Program-made: the position numbers and the translations under genes | In this document: piece after piece, positions 1-7,041 of the stretch | Layout: each line of letters begins with the position of its first letter | How positions within the stretch are numbered: the stretch's first letter is position 1 | IMG/VR virus record: IMGVR_UViG_2690316109_000023 | Reading direction: 5' to 3' (one strand) | Length of the DNA stretch: 7,041 nt | DNA from: a virus | Lineage: Duplodnaviria; Heunggongvirae; Uroviricota; Caudoviricetes | The notes under the pieces: model-generated | Databases searched by the model: none | What the model saw: only the letters and a program-made list of their open reading frames with translations | What the model was told of the DNA's origin: nothing

Positions 1-360
1 CGTAAAAAATACCGCAAAAACGCGGTCTGGGTGGTTAACTCCACGACGGCGGCAAAACTTCAGAAGGTGAAGAACGCGAACGGTGATTACATCTGGCGCG
101 ACCGTTTACAGGCGGGTGATCCTGATACGTTGCTGGGCCTTCCGGTCGAATATCTGGAGTTTATGCCTGATAACGTTATTGCCCTGGGTGACTTCAAACG
201 CGGTTACTACATTGTTGATCACGAAACAGGTGTTCGCACCAGACCGGACAACCTCACAGAGCCGGGCTTCATCAAAATTTTCACGCAGAAATATTTAGGC
301 GGTGGCGTGGTGGATTCGAACGCGATCAAGATTCTGGAACTGCCACAGGACGACGATTAA
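1..360 (+). CDS. Major capsid protein, HK97 family (C-terminal part; 5' end is outside the window)
   Basis: Frame 1 is open from base 1 to TAA at 358-360. The translation contains LLGLPVEYLEFMP and GDFKRGYYIVDHE, which resemble the conserved C-terminal motifs of HK97-fold capsid proteins as I remember them (LLG.PV...MP and GDF.RGY.IVDR). Sits in a head-gene cluster. Confidence 0.8.
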   Translation, partial: RKKYRKNAVWVVNSTTAAKLQKVKNANGDYIWRDRLQAGDPDTLLGLPVEYLEFMPDNVIALGDFKRGYYIVDHETGVRTRPDNLTEPGFIKIFTQKYLGGGVVDSNAIKILELPQDDD

Positions 361-370
361 CAGCATACAG

Positions 371-399
371 AAGGGGCTTAAAAGCCCCTTTAGTGTTTT
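371..399 (+). terminator. Candidate rho-independent terminator / attenuator after the capsid gene
   Basis: Inverted repeat AAGGGGCT (371-378) / AGCCCCTT (383-390) with loop TTAA, followed by the T-rich TTTAGTGTTTTA. The U-tract is interrupted, so termination is probably partial. Confidence 0.4.
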
Positions 400-414
400 A
401 TGGGTGAAAAAATT

Positions 415-972
415 ATGAAGAGTATGGAAATCCGGTCATCGGAAATCACTACCAGCGGAGCCGGTACGCTGACGGGCTACGTTGTTCGCTGGGATAAGCT
501 TTCAGAACTGCTATGGGGGGAGTTTTACGAAAAATTCCAGCGGGGGGCGTTTACTGAGTGGCTTGCGGCGGGTAATGACGTTCGCGGCCTGTATGAGCAT
601 GACCACAGCATGTTACTGGGGCGCACCCGTTCCGGCACGCTGAAACTGGAAGAGGACGAAACAGGGTTACGCTTTGAACTGACCCCACCGGATACCAGTA
701 CAGGGCGCGACGTTATCGAACTGGTTAAACGAGGTGATATATCCGGCATGAGCTTTGGCTTTCGTTCCCGTAAGGATGTATGGGATACCACAACAGATCC
801 ATGCGTGCGCACCGTGCTGGTGGCGGAACTATACGAAATTACCGTTACATCCGTACCGGCTTACCCTGATTCCGGCGTGGAGCTGGCCCGCCGCTCCCTG
901 TACGAGCAGCACCCCGAAAAAATGCCGCGTGCGGATAATCGCCGCTGGTGGGCGGATTTAGCGGGGGTGTGA
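415..972 (+). CDS. Prohead maturation protease, HK97 family (peptidase S78/U35)
   Basis: The translation contains HDHSMLLGRTRSGTL and KRGDISGMSFGF, typical of HK97 prohead proteases. Start is ambiguous: ATG at 400 has no RBS, ATG at 415 has GGTGA 7 nt upstream, ATG at 424 is also in frame. Stop TGA 970-972 lies 1 nt before the portal ATG. Confidence 0.85.
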   Translation: MKSMEIRSSEITTSGAGTLTGYVVRWDKLSELLWGEFYEKFQRGAFTEWLAAGNDVRGLYEHDHSMLLGRTRSGTLKLEEDETGLRFELTPPDTSTGRDVIELVKRGDISGMSFGFRSRKDVWDTTTDPCVRTVLVAELYEITVTSVPAYPDSGVELARRSLYEQHPEKMPRADNRRWWADLAGV

Positions 973-973
973 T

Positions 974-2185
974 ATGTGGCCTTTCAGAAGAAAAAAAGAG
1001 CAGCGCAGCATGACGCTTGATGAGTTTATGGCGCTGGCTGGCACATCGAACACGGGGGCGGGTGAGTACGTATCATCGGGGACAGCGGAATCACTGCCCG
1101 CCGTCATGAACGCCGTCACGGTCATCTCTGAGGCGGTGGCTACCATGCCGTGTTACCTGTACCTGGTACGCAATGAGAAGGGGAAGGAGGCCCGAGAGTG
1201 GCTTGATTCTCATCCGGTCGATCACATCCTCAACGAGCGCCCGAACGCATGGCAGACCCCCTACCAGTTTAAGCGAATGATGATCCGCCACTGCCTGTTA
1301 AACGGTAATGCTTATGCGGTGATTCAGTGGGGGCGTGATGGTTTTCCGGTGGCTTTGCATCCTTACCCGCCGCAGTCGGTGAACGTGGAGCAGACAGGTG
1401 AGCATAACTGGCGCTACTGCATCACTGACGCCTACACCGGAAACACCCGCAACTATTTACCGTGGGAGGTTCTCCACCTTCGTTACTCCACGGATGACGG
1501 TTTTATGGGGCGCTCACCTGTAACCATCTGCCGCGAATCGCTGGGGCTTGGGCTGGCCCAACAACGCCACGGCGCGAGCGTGATGCGTGATGGCATGATG
1601 GCGGCAGGGGTTATCACGTCAGGCGAATGGCTGGACGGCGTGAAGGGCAAACAGGCATTAGCCGCACTGGAACGCTACAAAGGGGCCAGAAACGCCGGAA
1701 AAACGCCCATCCTTGAAGGGGGTATGAGCTATCAGCAGCTGGGCATGAGTAATCAGGATGCTGAATGGCTGGCCTCCCGTCGCTTCACCATTGAAGACAT
1801 CGCCCGAATGTTCAACGTCTCGCCGATTTTTTTGCAGGAATACAGCAACAGCACCTACAGCAATTTCAGCGAGGCAAGCCGCGCATTTCTCACCATGACG
1901 ATGCGCCCGTGGCTGGCGAACTTTGAGCAGCAGATAAAAAACGCCCTGCTGGTGGCCTCACCTGTACCTGGTATCCGGTATCAGGTGGAGTTTGACAGCG
2001 CGGACCTGTTACGGGCCACACCTGGCGAACGCTTTGCCACCTATGAACGCGGCATCAAATCCGGCGTTATGTGCCCGAACGAAGCCCGCGAACGTGAAGG
2101 GCTGTCCCCGCGTGATGGTGGTGATGAGTTCAGCCAGGCATGGAAACAGGAAGTAAAAATCAGCGAGGGAGAAAAACCGGAATGA
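974..2185 (+). CDS. Portal protein, HK97 family
   Basis: 403-aa ORF of portal-like size and composition, placed between protease and head-tail adaptor. GGGGG RBS upstream. Stop overlaps the next start (ATGA at 2182-2185). Confidence 0.88.
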   Translation: MWPFRRKKEQRSMTLDEFMALAGTSNTGAGEYVSSGTAESLPAVMNAVTVISEAVATMPCYLYLVRNEKGKEAREWLDSHPVDHILNERPNAWQTPYQFKRMMIRHCLLNGNAYAVIQWGRDGFPVALHPYPPQSVNVEQTGEHNWRYCITDAYTGNTRNYLPWEVLHLRYSTDDGFMGRSPVTICRESLGLGLAQQRHGASVMRDGMMAAGVITSGEWLDGVKGKQALAALERYKGARNAGKTPILEGGMSYQQLGMSNQDAEWLASRRFTIEDIARMFNVSPIFLQEYSNSTYSNFSEASRAFLTMTMRPWLANFEQQIKNALLVASPVPGIRYQVEFDSADLLRATPGERFATYERGIKSGVMCPNEAREREGLSPRDGGDEFSQAWKQEVKISEGEKPE

Positions 2186-2520
2186 ACATAGGGCGACTGC
2201 GTGACAGGGTAACGATTCAGACCCTGAAACAGACCAGGGATATAACCGGCGAAATACTCGAAACGTGGGAGGACGGTCACACACTCTGGGCAAGCGTGAA
2301 CATGATCAGCAGCAAGGAGGCCATTTCATCGGGTGCAGAGCTGGCGATTGGTACCGTAAGGATCTGGATACGGTACCGGAAGGACATCAACGCCACCAGC
2401 CGGATAAAGGTCAGTACGGGGCCGCTGGCGGGGCGTGTACTGAATATCATCGGGCAGCCGCTGCCGGATGCCGCCAGGACACGCCTTGAAATTCTTTGTC
2501 GTGAGGGCGCGGAAAAATGA
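2182..2520 (+). CDS. Head-tail adaptor / head closure protein (Phage_H_T_join-like)
   Basis: N-terminus MNIGRLRDRVTIQ matches the G.LR.RVTIQ signature of head-tail adaptors. GAGGGA RBS 11 nt upstream. ATG 2182 overlaps the portal stop. An in-frame ATG at 2140 is a less likely start because it lies inside the portal gene. Confidence 0.8.
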   Translation: MNIGRLRDRVTIQTLKQTRDITGEILETWEDGHTLWASVNMISSKEAISSGAELAIGTVRIWIRYRKDINATSRIKVSTGPLAGRVLNIIGQPLPDAARTRLEILCREGAEK

Positions 2521-2837
2521 CAGAAGAACTTATCACCCATATAACCGGCGAAATACTCGAAACGTGGGTGGACGGTCACACACTCTGGGCAAGCGTGAAC
2601 ATGATCAGCAGCAAGGAGGCCATTTCATCGGGTGCAGAACTGGCGACTGGAACGGTAAGGATATGGATACGCTACAGGAAGGACATCAACGCCACCAGCC
2701 GGATAAAGGTCAATACGGGGCCGCTGGCGGGGCGTGTACTGAATATCATCGGGCAGCCGCTGCCGGATGCCGCCAGGACACGCCTTGAAATTCTTTGTCG
2801 TGAGGGCGCGGAAAAATGACAGAAGAACTTATCACCC
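2240..2837 (+). repeat. Tandem direct duplication of a 299-bp unit (copy 1 2240-2538, copy 2 2539-2837), 290/299 identical
   Basis: Base-by-base alignment of the two copies gives 9 mismatches (copy 1 positions 2270, 2340, 2348, 2352, 2355, 2364, 2373, 2377, 2414). The unit runs from codon ~20 of the adaptor gene to codon 7 of the connector gene. Confidence 0.92.
2517..2819 (+). CDS. Chimeric duplicate ORF: first 7 codons of the gp6-like connector (MTEELIT) fused in frame to adaptor residues ~21-112; possibly a pseudogene or accessory paralog
   Basis: Created by the 299-bp tandem duplication. ATG 2517 overlaps the adaptor stop (ATGA) and its own stop overlaps the connector ATG at 2816. Differs from the parental adaptor by 3 amino acids (E to V, I to T, S to N). 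Confidence 0.5.
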   Translation: MTEELITHITGEILETWVDGHTLWASVNMISSKEAISSGAELATGTVRIWIRYRKDINATSRIKVNTGPLAGRVLNIIGQPLPDAARTRLEILCREGAEK

Positions 2838-3112
2838 TGGAAGAAGTGAAACTCCATTGCCGCATCGATGGCGACGAGGAAGACCAGTTAATCAGCGGAT
2901 ACATTGCCGCATCGCTTGAGGCGTGCCAGATACACATAGGCAGGCGCTTTGATGACGGGCTGGAGTTCACGCCAGCCATAAAGATTGGCTGCATGATGTT
3001 TATCGCTCACCTGTATGAAAATCGCCAGATTGTCGCGGATAACGCAAAAACACGCGTACCCATGACGATTGGTGCACTCTGGACGGCTTACCGTGATGTG
3101 GGGGTGTACTGA
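2816..3112 (+). CDS. gp6-like head-tail connector protein
   Basis: N-terminus MTEELITLEEVKLHCRIDGDEEDQLISGYIAA resembles the gp6-like head-tail connector family. Stop TGA 3110-3112 overlaps the HNH ATG at 3112. Confidence 0.8.
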   Translation: MTEELITLEEVKLHCRIDGDEEDQLISGYIAASLEACQIHIGRRFDDGLEFTPAIKIGCMMFIAHLYENRQIVADNAKTRVPMTIGALWTAYRDVGVY

Positions 3113-3552
3113 TGCCGTGGCAACCATTAAGACGATGCACAGAACCAGGCTGTAACAGGCGCGTGAAGTCCGGCAAGTGTGAGGAGCACAGGCGGGCGGC
3201 ATGGCGTGCAGAGGATGCCAGACGAGGACACCGCCGCGCGCGTGGGTACTCCAGACAGTGGGAAAAATACCGCGCCATGTATCTGAGTAAAAACCCGTTA
3301 TGCGTGCGATGCCTTGAGAAGGGGATATATACGCCCGCCGTGGTGGTGGATCACATTATCCCGATTAATGGCGGTGATGATGTTCTCTTCTGGCCCGAAT
3401 GGAACCATCAGCCATTGTGCCAGGCGTGTCATAACCAGAAAACGAAGTGGCTTGATCCGGCAACAAAAAGCAAGCGTGCCGCTGGCGGATTCCGTGAGGA
3501 GGAAGAACGGGCCGCTAACCGCAATAACTGGATGTATGACGCTGATGAATGA
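3112..3552 (+). CDS. HNH endonuclease (terminase-associated)
   Basis: Cysteine pairs CTEPGC and CVRC, plus VVDHIIP and NHQPLCQACHNQKT, form an HNH/zinc-finger motif set. Located immediately upstream of terS/terL as in HNH-cos packaging systems. Confidence 0.88.
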   Translation: MPWQPLRRCTEPGCNRRVKSGKCEEHRRAAWRAEDARRGHRRARGYSRQWEKYRAMYLSKNPLCVRCLEKGIYTPAVVVDHIIPINGGDDVLFWPEWNHQPLCQACHNQKTKWLDPATKSKRAAGGFREEEERAANRNNWMYDADE

Positions 3553-3718
3553 GCGGGAACAAAACCGCCTTATCCGTGGACTTATAAGGCAGCGTGACGC
3601 ATGGAAGACACAGGAAACAGGGCATAAAGATAAAGCGTCAGGACGCGCAGAACGCATCACAGCGAAGCGATTAACCGACCGTGACCGCGAGGTTATGGAA
3701 TGTTTCCGCAATCGCTGA
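3545..3718 (+). CDS. Hypothetical small basic protein (57 aa)
   Basis: ORF MNEREQNRLIRGLIRQRDAWK... starts at an ATG overlapping the HNH stop (ATGAATGA), suggesting translational coupling. An in-frame ATG at 3536 is an alternative start. No recognisable domain. Confidence 0.35.
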   Translation: MNEREQNRLIRGLIRQRDAWKTQETGHKDKASGRAERITAKRLTDRDREVMECFRNR

Positions 3719-3842
3719 TGAGGCTGTATGACGGGGTGGGGGGGCGTTTTCAGGACAAACCCGACCCCGCCGGGCACCGAACGCCTCCTCAAATTTTTAT
3801 GCACGGGAATTTTTTGAAAAATAATCTGGCGAAAAAATAAGC
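3719..3842. other. Intergenic region between the HNH-side genes and terS; candidate cos/packaging site
   Basis: G-rich ACGGGGTGGGGGGG (3731-3744) and C-rich CCCGACCCCGCC (3760-3771) form an imperfect inverted repeat (CGGGGTGGGG vs reverse complement CGGGGTCGGG) around an 18-bp spacer, followed by AT-rich DNA. Its position matches where cos lies in HK97-type HNH-dependent systems. Confidence 0.25.
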
Positions 3843-4199
3843 ATGGCAAGACCACCGAAAGCCCCCGCCTACCTGGATGATATCGCCGTGAAGCAGTGGC
3901 GGGAAAAATCGCGGCAGCTTGCGGAACGGGGAGACCTTACCCCCGCCGACTGGAGTAATCTGGAACTGTATTGCGTCAATTACTCGATATACCGGAAAGC
4001 CGTCGCAGACCTTGCGGCACGCGGGTTCAGCATTGTTAACAGTCAGGGCGGCGAGAGCAGAAACCCCGCATTAAGCGCAAAATCCGACGCTGAAAGAGTG
4101 ATGATAAAAATGGCCTCCTTGCTCGGTTTTGACCCGGTAAGCCGCCGTAAAAATCCACCGGAAACAGAAGAAGAGGACGAGCTTGACCGCCTGGAATAA
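3843..4199 (+). CDS. Terminase small subunit (P27 family-like)
   Basis: 118-aa ORF starting MARPPKAPAYLD with an acidic C-terminal tail (ETEEEDELDRLE), immediately upstream of and overlapping the large terminase. Confidence 0.8.
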   Translation: MARPPKAPAYLDDIAVKQWREKSRQLAERGDLTPADWSNLELYCVNYSIYRKAVADLAARGFSIVNSQGGESRNPALSAKSDAERVMIKMASLLGFDPVSRRKNPPETEEEDELDRLE

Positions 4200-5844
4200 G
4201 TACGCAGAAGACGTAAAAACGGGCAAAATTCCGGCCTGTAAACGGTTAAAACAGGCTGTTAAACGGTACTTTTCGGACCTTAAAAGCCCCCTTTACACGT
4301 TCGATCGTGAGGTTGTGGAGCGGTTTATTGCCTTTTCCAGGGTGTGCCCGCACGTAAAAGGGCCGATGCGTGGCAGACCCATTGAGCTGGAGCCGTGGCA
4401 GCAGTTCGCCTTTGCGTGCATCCTCGGCTTTAAGGTTAAGGCCACCGGACGGCGCAAATACACGAGCGCCTTTATCGAAGTGCCGCGCAAAAATGCGAAA
4501 TCCACGACCGCCGCGATTCTGGCTGACTGGTTTCTGATTATGGAGAACGGTCAGCAGGATATTTACACCGCAGCGGTGAGCCGTGACCAGGCGCGGATCG
4601 TCTTTGATGATGCGCGTCAGATGTGCCTTTTATCCCGACCGTTACGCAGGCGGGTGAATATTCAGGCGCATAAGGTGATACACCCGAAAAGCAACAGCCT
4701 GTTAAAGCCGCTGGCAGCAAAAGCGGCAACCATCGAGGGAACAAACCCCAGCCTTTCCATCGTGGACGAATACCACTTGCACCCCGATAACGGCGTTTAT
4801 TCCGCGCTTGAGCTGGGGATGGGCGCACGTCCCGAAGGGCTGTTATTTGCCATTACCACATCAGGCAGCAACGTCGTTTCAGCCTGTAAGCAGCACTATG
4901 ATTATTGCTGCCAGATCCTGGACGGCGAAGAGGTTAACGATTCAATTTTTGTACTGATTTACGAACTGGACGACGAAAACGAGGTTGATGATCCGGCGAT
5001 GTGGATAAAGGCGAACCCTAATATTGATGTTTCCGTGGATCGTGAAAAACTGGCCTCAACCATCCAGAAAGCGCGGGGTATTCCGTCGCAGTGGGTGGAG
5101 ATGATGACAAAGCGATTTAATATCTGGTGTCAGGGGACTACCCCGTGGATGGGTAACGGCGCATGGGCTGAGTGTGCCGGAACGTTCACGGAGGAAGATT
5201 TACACGGCCAGGAGTGTTACGCGGGGCTGGATTTATCATCCACAAGCGATATTTCCAGCGTGTGCTATGCCTTTCCGGTCGGTAAAACCATTATGCTGGT
5301 TTCCCGTCATTATCTGCCGGAGTTCCAGCTACAGAACCCCGCCAATAAAAACCGCGCTGTCTATCGTCAGTGGGCTAAAGCAGGCTGGATACGCACAACG
5401 CCAGGTGACTGCATTGATTACGACCGGATCAGAGATGACATCATGCAGGACGCGGAGAAATTTAATATCAGGCTGGTGGGCTTTGATACGTGGAACGCCA
5501 CGCATCTCAGGACGCAATTACAGGGGGCTGGTTTTGAGGTGGAGCCGTTCCCGCAAACCTACCTCAGATTCAGTCCGGCGGCGAAATCGTTCGAAGTTTT
5601 TGTTAACCGCAGGGTGATTGTGCATCGTGGCGATCCGGTGTTGTCCTGGTCGATGAGTAACGTCGTGATGCAGAGTGACGCGAACGCCAATATCAAGCCG
5701 AACAAGAAAAAATCACCGAACAAGATAGACCCGAGCGTGGCGGCGCTGATGGCGTTTGGTACATTCCAGGCAGAGCATGAGGATTTTGCTTTTGATATAA
5801 GCGACAGCCACCGCCAGAAACTGGAAGAATTTAGCGGGGTGTAA
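4183..5844 (+). CDS. Terminase large subunit (HK97-type)
   Basis: 553-aa ORF of TerL size placed directly after terS. The first in-frame start is TTG at 4183, overlapping the terS 3' end by 17 nt; the next in-frame Met is ~60 codons downstream, so the TTG start is the likely one. Confidence 0.88.
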   Translation: MTAWNKYAEDVKTGKIPACKRLKQAVKRYFSDLKSPLYTFDREVVERFIAFSRVCPHVKGPMRGRPIELEPWQQFAFACILGFKVKATGRRKYTSAFIEVPRKNAKSTTAAILADWFLIMENGQQDIYTAAVSRDQARIVFDDARQMCLLSRPLRRRVNIQAHKVIHPKSNSLLKPLAAKAATIEGTNPSLSIVDEYHLHPDNGVYSALELGMGARPEGLLFAITTSGSNVVSACKQHYDYCCQILDGEEVNDSIFVLIYELDDENEVDDPAMWIKANPNIDVSVDREKLASTIQKARGIPSQWVEMMTKRFNIWCQGTTPWMGNGAWAECAGTFTEEDLHGQECYAGLDLSSTSDISSVCYAFPVGKTIMLVSRHYLPEFQLQNPANKNRAVYRQWAKAGWIRTTPGDCIDYDRIRDDIMQDAEKFNIRLVGFDTWNATHLRTQLQGAGFEVEPFPQTYLRFSPAAKSFEVFVNRRVIVHRGDPVLSWSMSNVVMQSDANANIKPNKKKSPNKIDPSVAALMAFGTFQAEHEDFAFDISDSHRQKLEEFSGV

Positions 5845-5857
5845 TGAGGTCAGCAGC

Positions 5858-6139
5858 ATGACAGAAGCCGAAATAACGGGATTAATCCGCCGCGTTGCCG
5901 GAATCAGCCAGCAGGCTGACGAACAGGCCACGCAGCCGGACAGCGTGACAGCCGAAAACTATGCGCGTGTTGTTGCTGAGGTGATGCGCCGTGATGGTAT
6001 AGAACTTAATGGCGTGGATATGCGCAACATACGAACCAGAGTTCTTGAGTTGCTGGCCTACCGTCGCCGCGTGGAGATGTATCGGGAGAAGGAGAAAATA
6101 ACGTACCACTGGAAGAAGCCGGAGCGGTTGCGGCGGTAA
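5858..6139 (+). CDS. Hypothetical protein (93 aa), last gene of the module
   Basis: ATG 5858 with GAGG 8 nt upstream, 13 nt after the terL stop. Charged, arginine-rich C-terminus. No recognisable domain. Confidence 0.5.
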   Translation: MTEAEITGLIRRVAGISQQADEQATQPDSVTAENYARVVAEVMRRDGIELNGVDMRNIRTRVLELLAYRRRVEMYREKEKITYHWKKPERLRR

Positions 6140-6289
6140 CTGGTTGATATTCCCGACGGACCAAAAATGGGTGGCTACATCCCTCGCTTCTGAGGACTGT
6201 TAACAAGCTGCCTGAAAGACAGTCACAAACTACGAAATTTTCGCAGTTTAATTAATGATCAGCTTAATCGCTAACCCGCAGATATTTTC

Positions 6290-6700
6290 GGAAACCTCAA
6301 TTTGAGGAAGTCGGCGCGGTAACTCGCTGAACTTTAAGCAAAGCGCAAAATTGCGCTTGCTGAATAATCATTATGATTACGCAGATGATTAAGGAATGAC
6401 CGAAGGCGGAAATTCGCCTGTGGTTAATGGGGGAGTTGCAGATCTGCAACTCGACCATGAAACTACGGAAACTACCCGTAGTTTGGGTAGTAAGAGTAAC
6501 ACCCAGATTTTGGGTCTTACTCGTGATACCCAAATTTGGGGTATCAGTGGCAACCATAACGACTTTCGTTACGGTTGATGCTTTTACCCCATTGGGGGAA
6601 AGGTATTACGATAATCATAACACCTACCGAACAGGTAAAGCCCACCAGCCTGATTAACGTTTAACCGGAAAAAAATTCCGGTAGGTGGGGATCCCCATAT
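6290..6700. other. Hairpin/palindrome-dense non-coding region
   Basis: At least ten dyad elements in ~400 bp: 6295-6307, 6341-6358, 6405-6418, 6433-6452 (perfect 20-mer), 6463-6491, 6494-6522, 6525-6545, 6551-6577, 6587-6597, 6664-6682, 6686-6697 (perfect 12-mer). ORFs in this region are rich in rare codons and lack RBSs. Confidence 0.6.
6433..6452. promoter_or_regulatory. Perfect 20-bp palindrome GAGTTGCAGATCTGCAACTC; candidate dimeric-protein binding site
   Basis: Exact reverse-complement symmetry over 20 bp, verified base by base. Confidence 0.4.
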
Positions 6701-6808
6701 CGACATTAACGCCCCTCATGAATTGGTGCGCTTCCCCCTGGAAAGATGATCCGCCTGTATATTTCTTGTGTCTATTTGTTCCACGTTGTTTCATACAGTG
6801 CACCGAAC

Positions 6809-6832
6809 GGTGTAGTCACTGGTGTAGTCATT
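6809..6832 (+). repeat. Tandem 12-bp direct repeat GGTGTAGTCACT / GGTGTAGTCATT; candidate recombinase arm-type or regulator binding sites
   Basis: 11/12 identical adjacent repeats about 75-95 bp inside the putative element end. Confidence 0.4.
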
Positions 6833-6876
6833 TTGCGATTTTTGGCACTTTTTGTGGTGCAAATTATTTAATTAAA

Positions 6877-7041
6877 TCAATTAGTTAGGTTAAATAAGTT
6901 ATATATAACAGCAATAAATAATGCGAGAATAAACGGCACGATGATCTCGGCGGCAAAACGGATACCGCAGAGAATAATGACCAGCATTCCCAACATAATG
7001 ACGATTTTTAGGCCATTGAGCGTGATGATCGGCTTTGCCAT
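6877..7041 (-). pseudogene. tqsA: 5' fragment of an AI-2E family transporter gene (tqsA/ydgG-like): about 45 native codons, then 9 foreign codons and a stop
   Basis: Minus-strand ATG at 7039-7041 translates to [45 protein letters not shown], then IYNLFNLTN and stop (TGA complement at 6877-6879). The hydrophobic N-terminus matches my recollection of E. coli TqsA. Sequence becomes AT-rich and non-coding exactly where the match ends (~6906). Confidence 0.55.

Follow-up and report, generated by a model that had tools for sequence, protein, structure and literature searches.

The right-hand end of the 7,041-bp stretch of DNA analysed here (hereafter the window) raises the question of what has cut into the host gene tqsA, at which base it has done so, and what becomes of the gene. 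The window ends at the tqsA start codon, and a minus-strand ORF reads from that codon into DNA that is no longer tqsA. We put at about 0.92 the probability that the window is the right half of a capsid-forming phage-inducible chromosomal island (cf-PICI) of ~15 kb, a sibling of EcCIEDL933, which was placed in tqsA by its own tyrosine integrase.

The tqsA fragment at the end of the window

Two features describe the remains of the host gene within the window:

6905..7041, minus strand: 5' fragment of tqsA (nt 1-137, codons 1-46; 137/137 identity), the host sequence lying right of attR
6877..7041, minus strand: truncated ORF of 54 aa with an ATG start, comprising TqsA residues 1-46, eight island codons (YNLFNLTN) and a stop

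The original prediction held that the minus-strand ORF starting at 7041 is the N-terminus of TqsA, and a base-by-base comparison with tqsA (b1601) of E. coli K-12 MG1655 bears this out: all 137 of the first 137 nt from the start codon are identical, and divergence begins at nt 138. Codon 46 is ATT in K-12 and ATA in the stub; because the altered codon still encodes Ile, 46 rather than 45 TqsA residues are kept, and the product of the stub is therefore TqsA 1-46 followed by eight foreign residues. The DNA past the break had been described as non-coding and AT-richer, and it is, with a GC fraction of 0.41 at 6601-6900 against 0.52-0.58 across the island genes. The break had also been placed near codon 45; the interruption itself stands, and its exact site is corrected to codon 46, within helix H2 of the protein. 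The structure of TqsA has been solved (7nb6) and its helices described (PMC9475539): H1 (Thr7-Phe29) provides the main pentamer contact, at the cytoplasmic face, and H2 (Ala31-Trp57) is a horizontal, membrane-embedded helix. Mapped on these helix limits, the break halves H2, leaving H1 and the first half of H2 in the stub. The AI-2E_transport domain (PF01594) spans residues 14-328 of full-length TqsA, and the 54-aa product searched alone against Pfam gave no match, the fragment being too short. Judged by its sequence, the stub is a gene fragment and not a functional member of the AI-2E transporter family, as the complete PF01594 domain is absent.

The surrounding genes agree in near-identical loci. 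Where the exact 54-aa product is encoded, mdtJ/mdtI lie directly past the stub, and in carriers of the island pntB lies past the 3' fragment; this position between mdtJ and pntB is that of tqsA. The exact 54-aa product is on record in 429 blocks of public assemblies, and among the matches listed, all six exact-stub loci have the stub between mdtJ/mdtI and the TerL end of the island. No second tqsA was found on the mdtJ side in those six loci. Matches to tqsA in carriers fall in at most two places per genome, and carriers hold only the two tqsA fragments, which disposes of the objection that an intact tqsA might lie immediately outside the window. Exact-pattern scans of species-representative genomes matched neither the junction variant nor the island end of the window; searching by the exact 54-aa product places this junction variant in many assemblies.

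It is scarcely conceivable that the ORF is an independent small membrane protein or a leader peptide that merely resembles the TqsA N-terminus. It does possess a separate start and stop codon, and many assemblies annotate it as a gene, but its 137/137 nt identity to tqsA gives way to divergence exactly at the att core, and in 5,172 genomes the stub sequence continues without a break into the remainder of tqsA. Its 8-codon tail, moreover, differs between island copies, so the stub is not a conserved product. Breakpoint mapping identifies the ORF as a fragment of tqsA and thereby refutes an unrelated small protein. Chance is an unrealistic explanation for the arrangement, because the same junction is found in 246 complete E. 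coli genomes and the exact product recurs across the 429 assembly blocks.

Gene content of the island and its relation to EcCIEDL933

Positions 1-6139 of the window carry a head-and-packaging module on the plus strand, followed by an ORF of 93 aa:

1..360, plus strand: 3' end of the HK97-fold major capsid gene (PF05065), mapped on the O26 capsid gene and running off the left edge of the window
400..972, plus strand: HK97-family prohead protease (PF04586)
974..2185, plus strand: portal protein (PF04860)
2182..2520, plus strand: head-closure (head completion) protein, full-length copy 1 (PF05521), with the start taken from the O26 annotation
2517..2819, plus strand: chimeric second head-closure ORF, produced by the 299-bp tandem duplication 2240-2837 and specific to the window
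2816..3112, plus strand: gp6-like head-tail connector (PF05135)
3112..3552, plus strand: HNH endonuclease of the packaging module (PF01844)
3843..4199, plus strand: terminase small subunit TerS, P27 family (PF05119)
4183..5844, plus strand: terminase large subunit TerL (PF03354 and PF20441)
5858..6139, plus strand: conserved 93-aa island ORF, the last gene before attR, with no Pfam match

Among the features by which a cf-PICI is recognised, the window carries its own capsid, protease, portal and head-tail connectors, as identified with Pfam, and its own HNH, TerS and TerL downstream of these morphogenetic genes. This is the proteobacterial order, given in the cf-PICI report (10.1101/2022.09.08.507074) as capsid, protease, portal and connectors, then hnh-terS-terL. 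The gap between hnh and terS measures 290 bp (3553-3842) and is partly covered by a 60-aa ORF (3536-3718), which is intact in the window and carries a frameshift in O26. If the arrangement of HK97-type phages is a guide, this gap is the place to expect a cos site. No close relative of the window was found among phage records, the shared parts being fragments at about 77% identity.

The left half of the island and the 3' fragment of tqsA lie outside the window and were read from near-identical loci, which at their closest are 99.5-99.9% identical; the closest locus of all is 99.9% identical over 2539-7041. Six carriers were examined: O26:H11 11368, 88_1577, O157:H7 SS TX 754-1, PM4-5, STEC299 and 300709. 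In O26:H11 11368, the right half of whose island is 99.0-99.2% identical to the window, the island sits between a tqsA 3' pseudogene beside pntB and a tqsA 5' pseudogene beside mdtJ, and PGAP calls the tqsA halves in carriers pseudogenes, "missing N-terminus" and "missing C-terminus". Complete genomes that share the junction place the 3' fragment ~15 kb from the stub, beside a tyrosine integrase and alpA. The rest of tqsA had been predicted to lie at the far end of the element, and it does so in 6/6 carriers. The left half of the O26 island encodes the tyrosine integrase, AlpA, an Icd-like protein, a DUF4222 protein, a D5-type primase-helicase, SSB and PerC. The PICI backbone of int, alpA and pri-rep is present in the near-identical carriers, with the domains Phage_integrase and Arm-DNA-bind_3, Phage_AlpA, and D5_N/Pox_D5. 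Core to core, the cf-PICI islands are 14.9-15.0 kb long, and no tail or lysis genes are annotated in those of the carriers, in keeping with the 10-15 kb and absence of tail and lysis genes that characterise cf-PICIs; with its duplication, the window's copy would reach about 15.2 kb.

EcCIEDL933 is the prototype cf-PICI (Alqurainy et al., 10.1101/2022.09.08.507074; structure, 10.1101/2025.02.11.637232). The experiments described for it (10.1101/2022.09.08.507074) include induction by HK106/HK446, dependence on alpA, and self-made T=4 capsids. Helper induction through alpA, self-made small capsids and hijacked tails are demonstrated for EcCIEDL933 only. The gene order and content of EcCIEDL933 are those of the window's island, the lengths of all structural and packaging ORFs in the window match the EcCIEDL933 annotation, and the O26 tqsA island and EcCIEDL933 have identical protein accessions for capsid, connector and TerS. 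Nucleotide identity between the window and EcCIEDL933 is 97.7% over 1-2538, 96.4% over 2541-6151 and 90% over 6549-6881; the window segment 6336-6548 is missing from EcCIEDL933, and homology ends at 6881. The replication genes differ, the O26-type tqsA island encoding a D5-type primase-helicase and EcCIEDL933 a DUF927 protein.

All complete genomes that match the window are 300 bp shorter than it. The difference consists of the 299-bp tandem duplication (2240-2837) and a 1-bp indel, the latter falling in a small ORF that is intact in the window and frameshifted in O26. The duplication yields the full head-closure gene (2182-2520) and an in-frame, N-terminally truncated chimeric copy (2517-2819) that begins with the first codons of the connector gene. 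At the nucleotide level 9 positions distinguish the duplicate copies. Each copy has an exact counterpart among alleles that occur singly in other islands: copy 1 in that of CP010238.1 and STEC299, and copy 2 in that of O26, 88_1577 and the O157 tqsA island. The chimeric head-closure product has no record in the public assemblies searched. The duplication arose by unequal recombination between two variants of the cf-PICI, or else it is a chimera made during assembly of the sequence; the added truncated head-closure ORF could impair particle assembly.

The attachment site and its occupants

Between the 93-aa ORF and the host DNA, the right end of the island has the following parts:

6140..6904: non-coding right arm (P' arm and mosaic spacer) of ~765 bp, with no annotated gene in carriers and no Rfam match
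6415..6600: cluster of hairpins seen by RNA folding in this non-coding arm, past the final island ORF and ahead of attR
6809..6830, plus strand: tandem arm-type repeats, two copies of GGTGTAGTCA with a spacing of 12 bp, candidates for the sites at which the integrase binds the P' arm
6855..6904: core-proximal island end, variable from one island copy to another and without relation to the corresponding end of EcCIEDL933
6905..6913: att core of 9 bp, ATAACAGCA on the plus strand (TGCTGTTAT in the tqsA sense, tqsA nt 129-137), duplicated at both island ends

The proposal that the element interrupts the 5' end of tqsA is confirmed by aligning the junction to the uninterrupted K-12 gene, which also reveals a core duplicated at the island ends. 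The right junction, in the window, follows tqsA through nt 137, and the left junction, in O26, follows it from nt 129; their overlap, tqsA nt 129-137, gives the duplicated core TGCTGTTAT. This core is present once in the window and once in K-12, and two copies flank the island in 6/6 carriers. The O26 island has exactly four copies of the 10-mer GGTGTAGTCA, a same-orientation pair inside each end. The right-end pair lies 75-96 bp inside the right end, with offsets of 84-96 bp to the right core, and in carriers the left-end pair is found shortly upstream of int, at 138/150 bp from the left core. These offsets are conserved in six islands ranging from 10,976 to 15,042 bp, and the island integrase of the carriers has an arm-binding domain (Arm-DNA-bind_3, PF13356). 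A duplicated core with tandem arm repeats at both ends is as would be expected of a functional attL/attR pair of a tyrosine integrase.

Several minor observations concern the non-coding right arm. The last 942 bp have nine mismatches to O26, of which eight cluster at 6855-6894; this stretch, which lies between the arm repeats and the core, also varies among other tqsA islands. No RNA families were found in the window (Rfam, E<=1), and promoter and terminator scans of 5800-7041 gave counts not above those of shuffled sequence. The segment 6415-6600 folds with an MFE of -89.7 kcal/mol (z = -10.6 on the plus strand and z = -8.6 on the minus strand) into a chain of near-perfect hairpins that includes three ACCCnnnnnnnGGGT-type palindromes. 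The cluster itself has no Rfam match. Whole or partial, it is found in 673/5,426 genomes, mostly once per genome and unannotated; covariation analysis gave 0 pairs with double changes among copies that are too similar to one another. It could be an RNA, a set of protein-binding palindromes or a terminator cluster.

The att regions separate this island from the prototype. The P and P' arms of the two islands are homologous, with a tandem 10-mer pair at matching positions on each arm of both; the 10-mer is GGTGTAGTCA in the tqsA type and GGTGTAGTTA in EcCIEDL933, in which one right-arm copy is GGTGTAGTCA. The integrases, both encoded outside the window (O26 L001 6113-7342 and EcCIEDL933 L008 6329-7558), are 91% identical, differing at 37/409 residues, and 19 of the 37 substitutions fall within the first 66 residues, the arm-binding domain. 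Around the crossover, however, ~30 bp are unrelated between the two: EcCIEDL933, with core GGACATATTT, occupies the roxA-phoQ interval and interrupts no gene, whereas the island of the window has core TGCTGTTAT and lies in tqsA. With a homologous body and homologous arms but an unrelated core, the island is therefore a sibling of the prototype that has been retargeted to a different site. EcCIEDL933 itself as the occupant of tqsA is ruled out by its map position between roxA and phoQ. A pair of integrases that are 91% identical, with a swapped core region of ~30 bp, would suit the mapping of rewritten target specificity.

The original prediction did not recognise tqsA as a common integration target, and on this point it was mistaken: tqsA is a published PICI attachment site (PMC6092414, Table S1). 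That table (Fillol-Salom et al. 2018) places the classical PICIs EcCI042 and EcCIK1516 in tqsA and gives ATAACAGCA as their core; both have the site and the 9-bp core in common with the island of the window, and the core derived here independently equals the published 9-mer. According to the cf-PICI work (10.1101/2022.09.08.507074), E. coli cf-PICIs use six attB sites, four of which are common to classical PICIs. A survey of prophage integration also names tqsA as one of the near-core genes that it disrupts (Bobay et al. 2013, PMC3603311). The TIGER study (Mageeney et al. 2020, PMC7192596) describes, in the text that is accessible, three E. coli elements of 11-16 kb (Eco282.16.tqsA, Eco33.11.tqsA and Eco557.15.tqsA) that cut the UPF0118/AI-2E domain at one position and leave it unrestored, and does not class them there as PICIs or cf-PICIs. 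A literature search found no paper with tqsA/ydgG and PICI terms together in its main text. The island family, the tqsA attachment site with its 9-bp core, and control of tqsA integrity by an integrating element are all already published; as a known island family at a known site, the finding is therefore not new.

Occupancy of the site was scored in 5,426 complete E. coli genomes with a 600-bp K-12 sequence spanning it. This attB probe is intact in 5,172/5,426 genomes and split or truncated in about 250, and a 161-bp probe across the window's attR detects that junction in 246/5,426. Since attR is found in 246 of the about 250 split genomes, almost every split tqsA is owed to elements with this att system, and the site is occupied in ~4.5% of complete E. 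coli genomes. The six tqsA occupants inspected are all PICIs or cf-PICIs. The cf-PICIs occur in O26, O103, O111, O55:H7, some O157:H7, a marmot isolate and others, and occupants also include ~11-kb classical PICIs with the same int-alpA end, 93-aa ORF and attR. The ~11-kb islands of PM4-5 and 300709 have this int-alpA left end, 93-aa ORF and attR in common with the island of the window, and the 93-aa ORF is accordingly found in both kinds of island at the tqsA site. The classical PICIs lack the set of portal, protease, connector, HNH and TerL genes and therefore depend on helper capsids, whereas the island of the window encodes its own capsid. Such occupants show modular exchange of cargo behind one integration module. 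In the islands of PM4-5 and 300709, a lambda-like capsid/decoration gene pair takes the place of the HK97-type module.

Consequence for tqsA

As the junction sequences show, the island entered tqsA by recombination within the 9-bp identity TGCTGTTAT, and the gene is now split into a 5' stub and a 3' remnant ~15 kb away beside int. By homology to EcCIEDL933, an HNH/cos-type helper phage would trigger alpA, and the island would then excise and replicate with its own primase-helicase; its own HNH, TerS and TerL would package it into small capsids built by the island itself and fitted with tails of the helper. Once the island had excised across the core, tqsA would be whole again.

In the tqsA frame read outward from the island, TGA and TAA codons stand right before the core that opens the 3' remnant, so the island supplies no replacement 5' end or N-terminus. 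The remnant has no start codon, the next in-frame Met being residue 54, and low-level restart at Met54 may occur. From the protein structure we infer that tqsA is inactive while the island is resident, the stub holding H1 and half of H2 and the remnant having neither a start codon nor the H1 pentamer contact. That disruption of tqsA alters AI-2 export is plausible on the same footing. When the island is excised across the core in silico, all six carriers give a tqsA of 1,035 nt and 344 codons with no internal stop or frameshift, and the rebuilt genes differ from K-12 by 0-4 amino acids. An intact rebuilt tqsA would fit recent or recurrent insertion and upkeep through reversible excision equally well.

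Two other accounts of the split gene were weighed. In the one, the island is a decaying prophage remnant rather than a mobile satellite and tqsA is simply a dead pseudogene. PGAP labels both halves of tqsA pseudogenes, and individual copies are damaged: in O26 a small ORF is frameshifted, in the O157 copy the SSB is interrupted by a stop, in copy L014 the portal is split, and the window has the head-closure duplication. This account is nevertheless very improbable: the structural and packaging ORFs have the lengths of those of the experimentally mobile EcCIEDL933, the att architecture of core and paired arm repeats at conserved offsets is intact in six islands, and the split tqsA is free of stops or indels in 6/6 carriers. 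In unrelated lineages, moreover, the cargo at this site differs, being a cf-PICI in some and a classical PICI in others, which implies repeated independent integration.

The other account complements the cf-PICI explanation and does not displace it. It holds that the island acts as a regulated gene-integrity switch, with tqsA off while the island is resident and phage-triggered excision turning AI-2 export on, to the benefit of the host or the island. According to the TIGER study (PMC7192596), tqsA is a candidate for regulated gene integrity because several independent elements cut the same domain position. A prophage in Listeria comK likewise lies inside a coding sequence, and its precise excision restores the gene (cited in PMC7192596), as excision does in silico for tqsA. 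Two features that regulated integrity calls for are found in silico at this locus: the inactivating insertion leaves the gene unrestored, with two in-frame stops before the 3' remnant, and precise excision would restore tqsA in all six sampled carriers. For comK-type phages, however, regulated and non-lytic excision has been shown, whereas nothing comparable is known of the tqsA islands. Excision of PICIs normally goes with lytic growth of the helper phage, and given that lytic growth an excising cell would be expected to die. An intact rebuilt ORF is, besides, equally expected of recent insertions, and only about 4.5% of genomes are occupied. A switch at this locus is unlikely. If it were real, tqsA-resident PICIs and cf-PICIs would couple phage exposure to quorum signalling through alpA-driven excision.

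Under the preferred reading of a cf-PICI integrated in tqsA, ~4.5% of complete E. coli genomes, including major O26, O103, O111 and some O157:H7/O55:H7 lineages, would be without a functional tqsA owing to a phage satellite, as judged from genome sequence. Caution is called for when AI-2 export or biofilm is compared between strains, or when tqsA is treated as a core gene.

A last, minor observation concerns the int end of the O26 island, where a hypothetical ORF of 60 aa (L001 5943-6125, minus strand), with no Pfam match, overlaps the start of int and reads outward in the tqsA frame. It was considered as a new N-terminus for tqsA and rejected: the ORF is in frame, but TGA TAA precede the remnant. 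The ORF is probably spurious.
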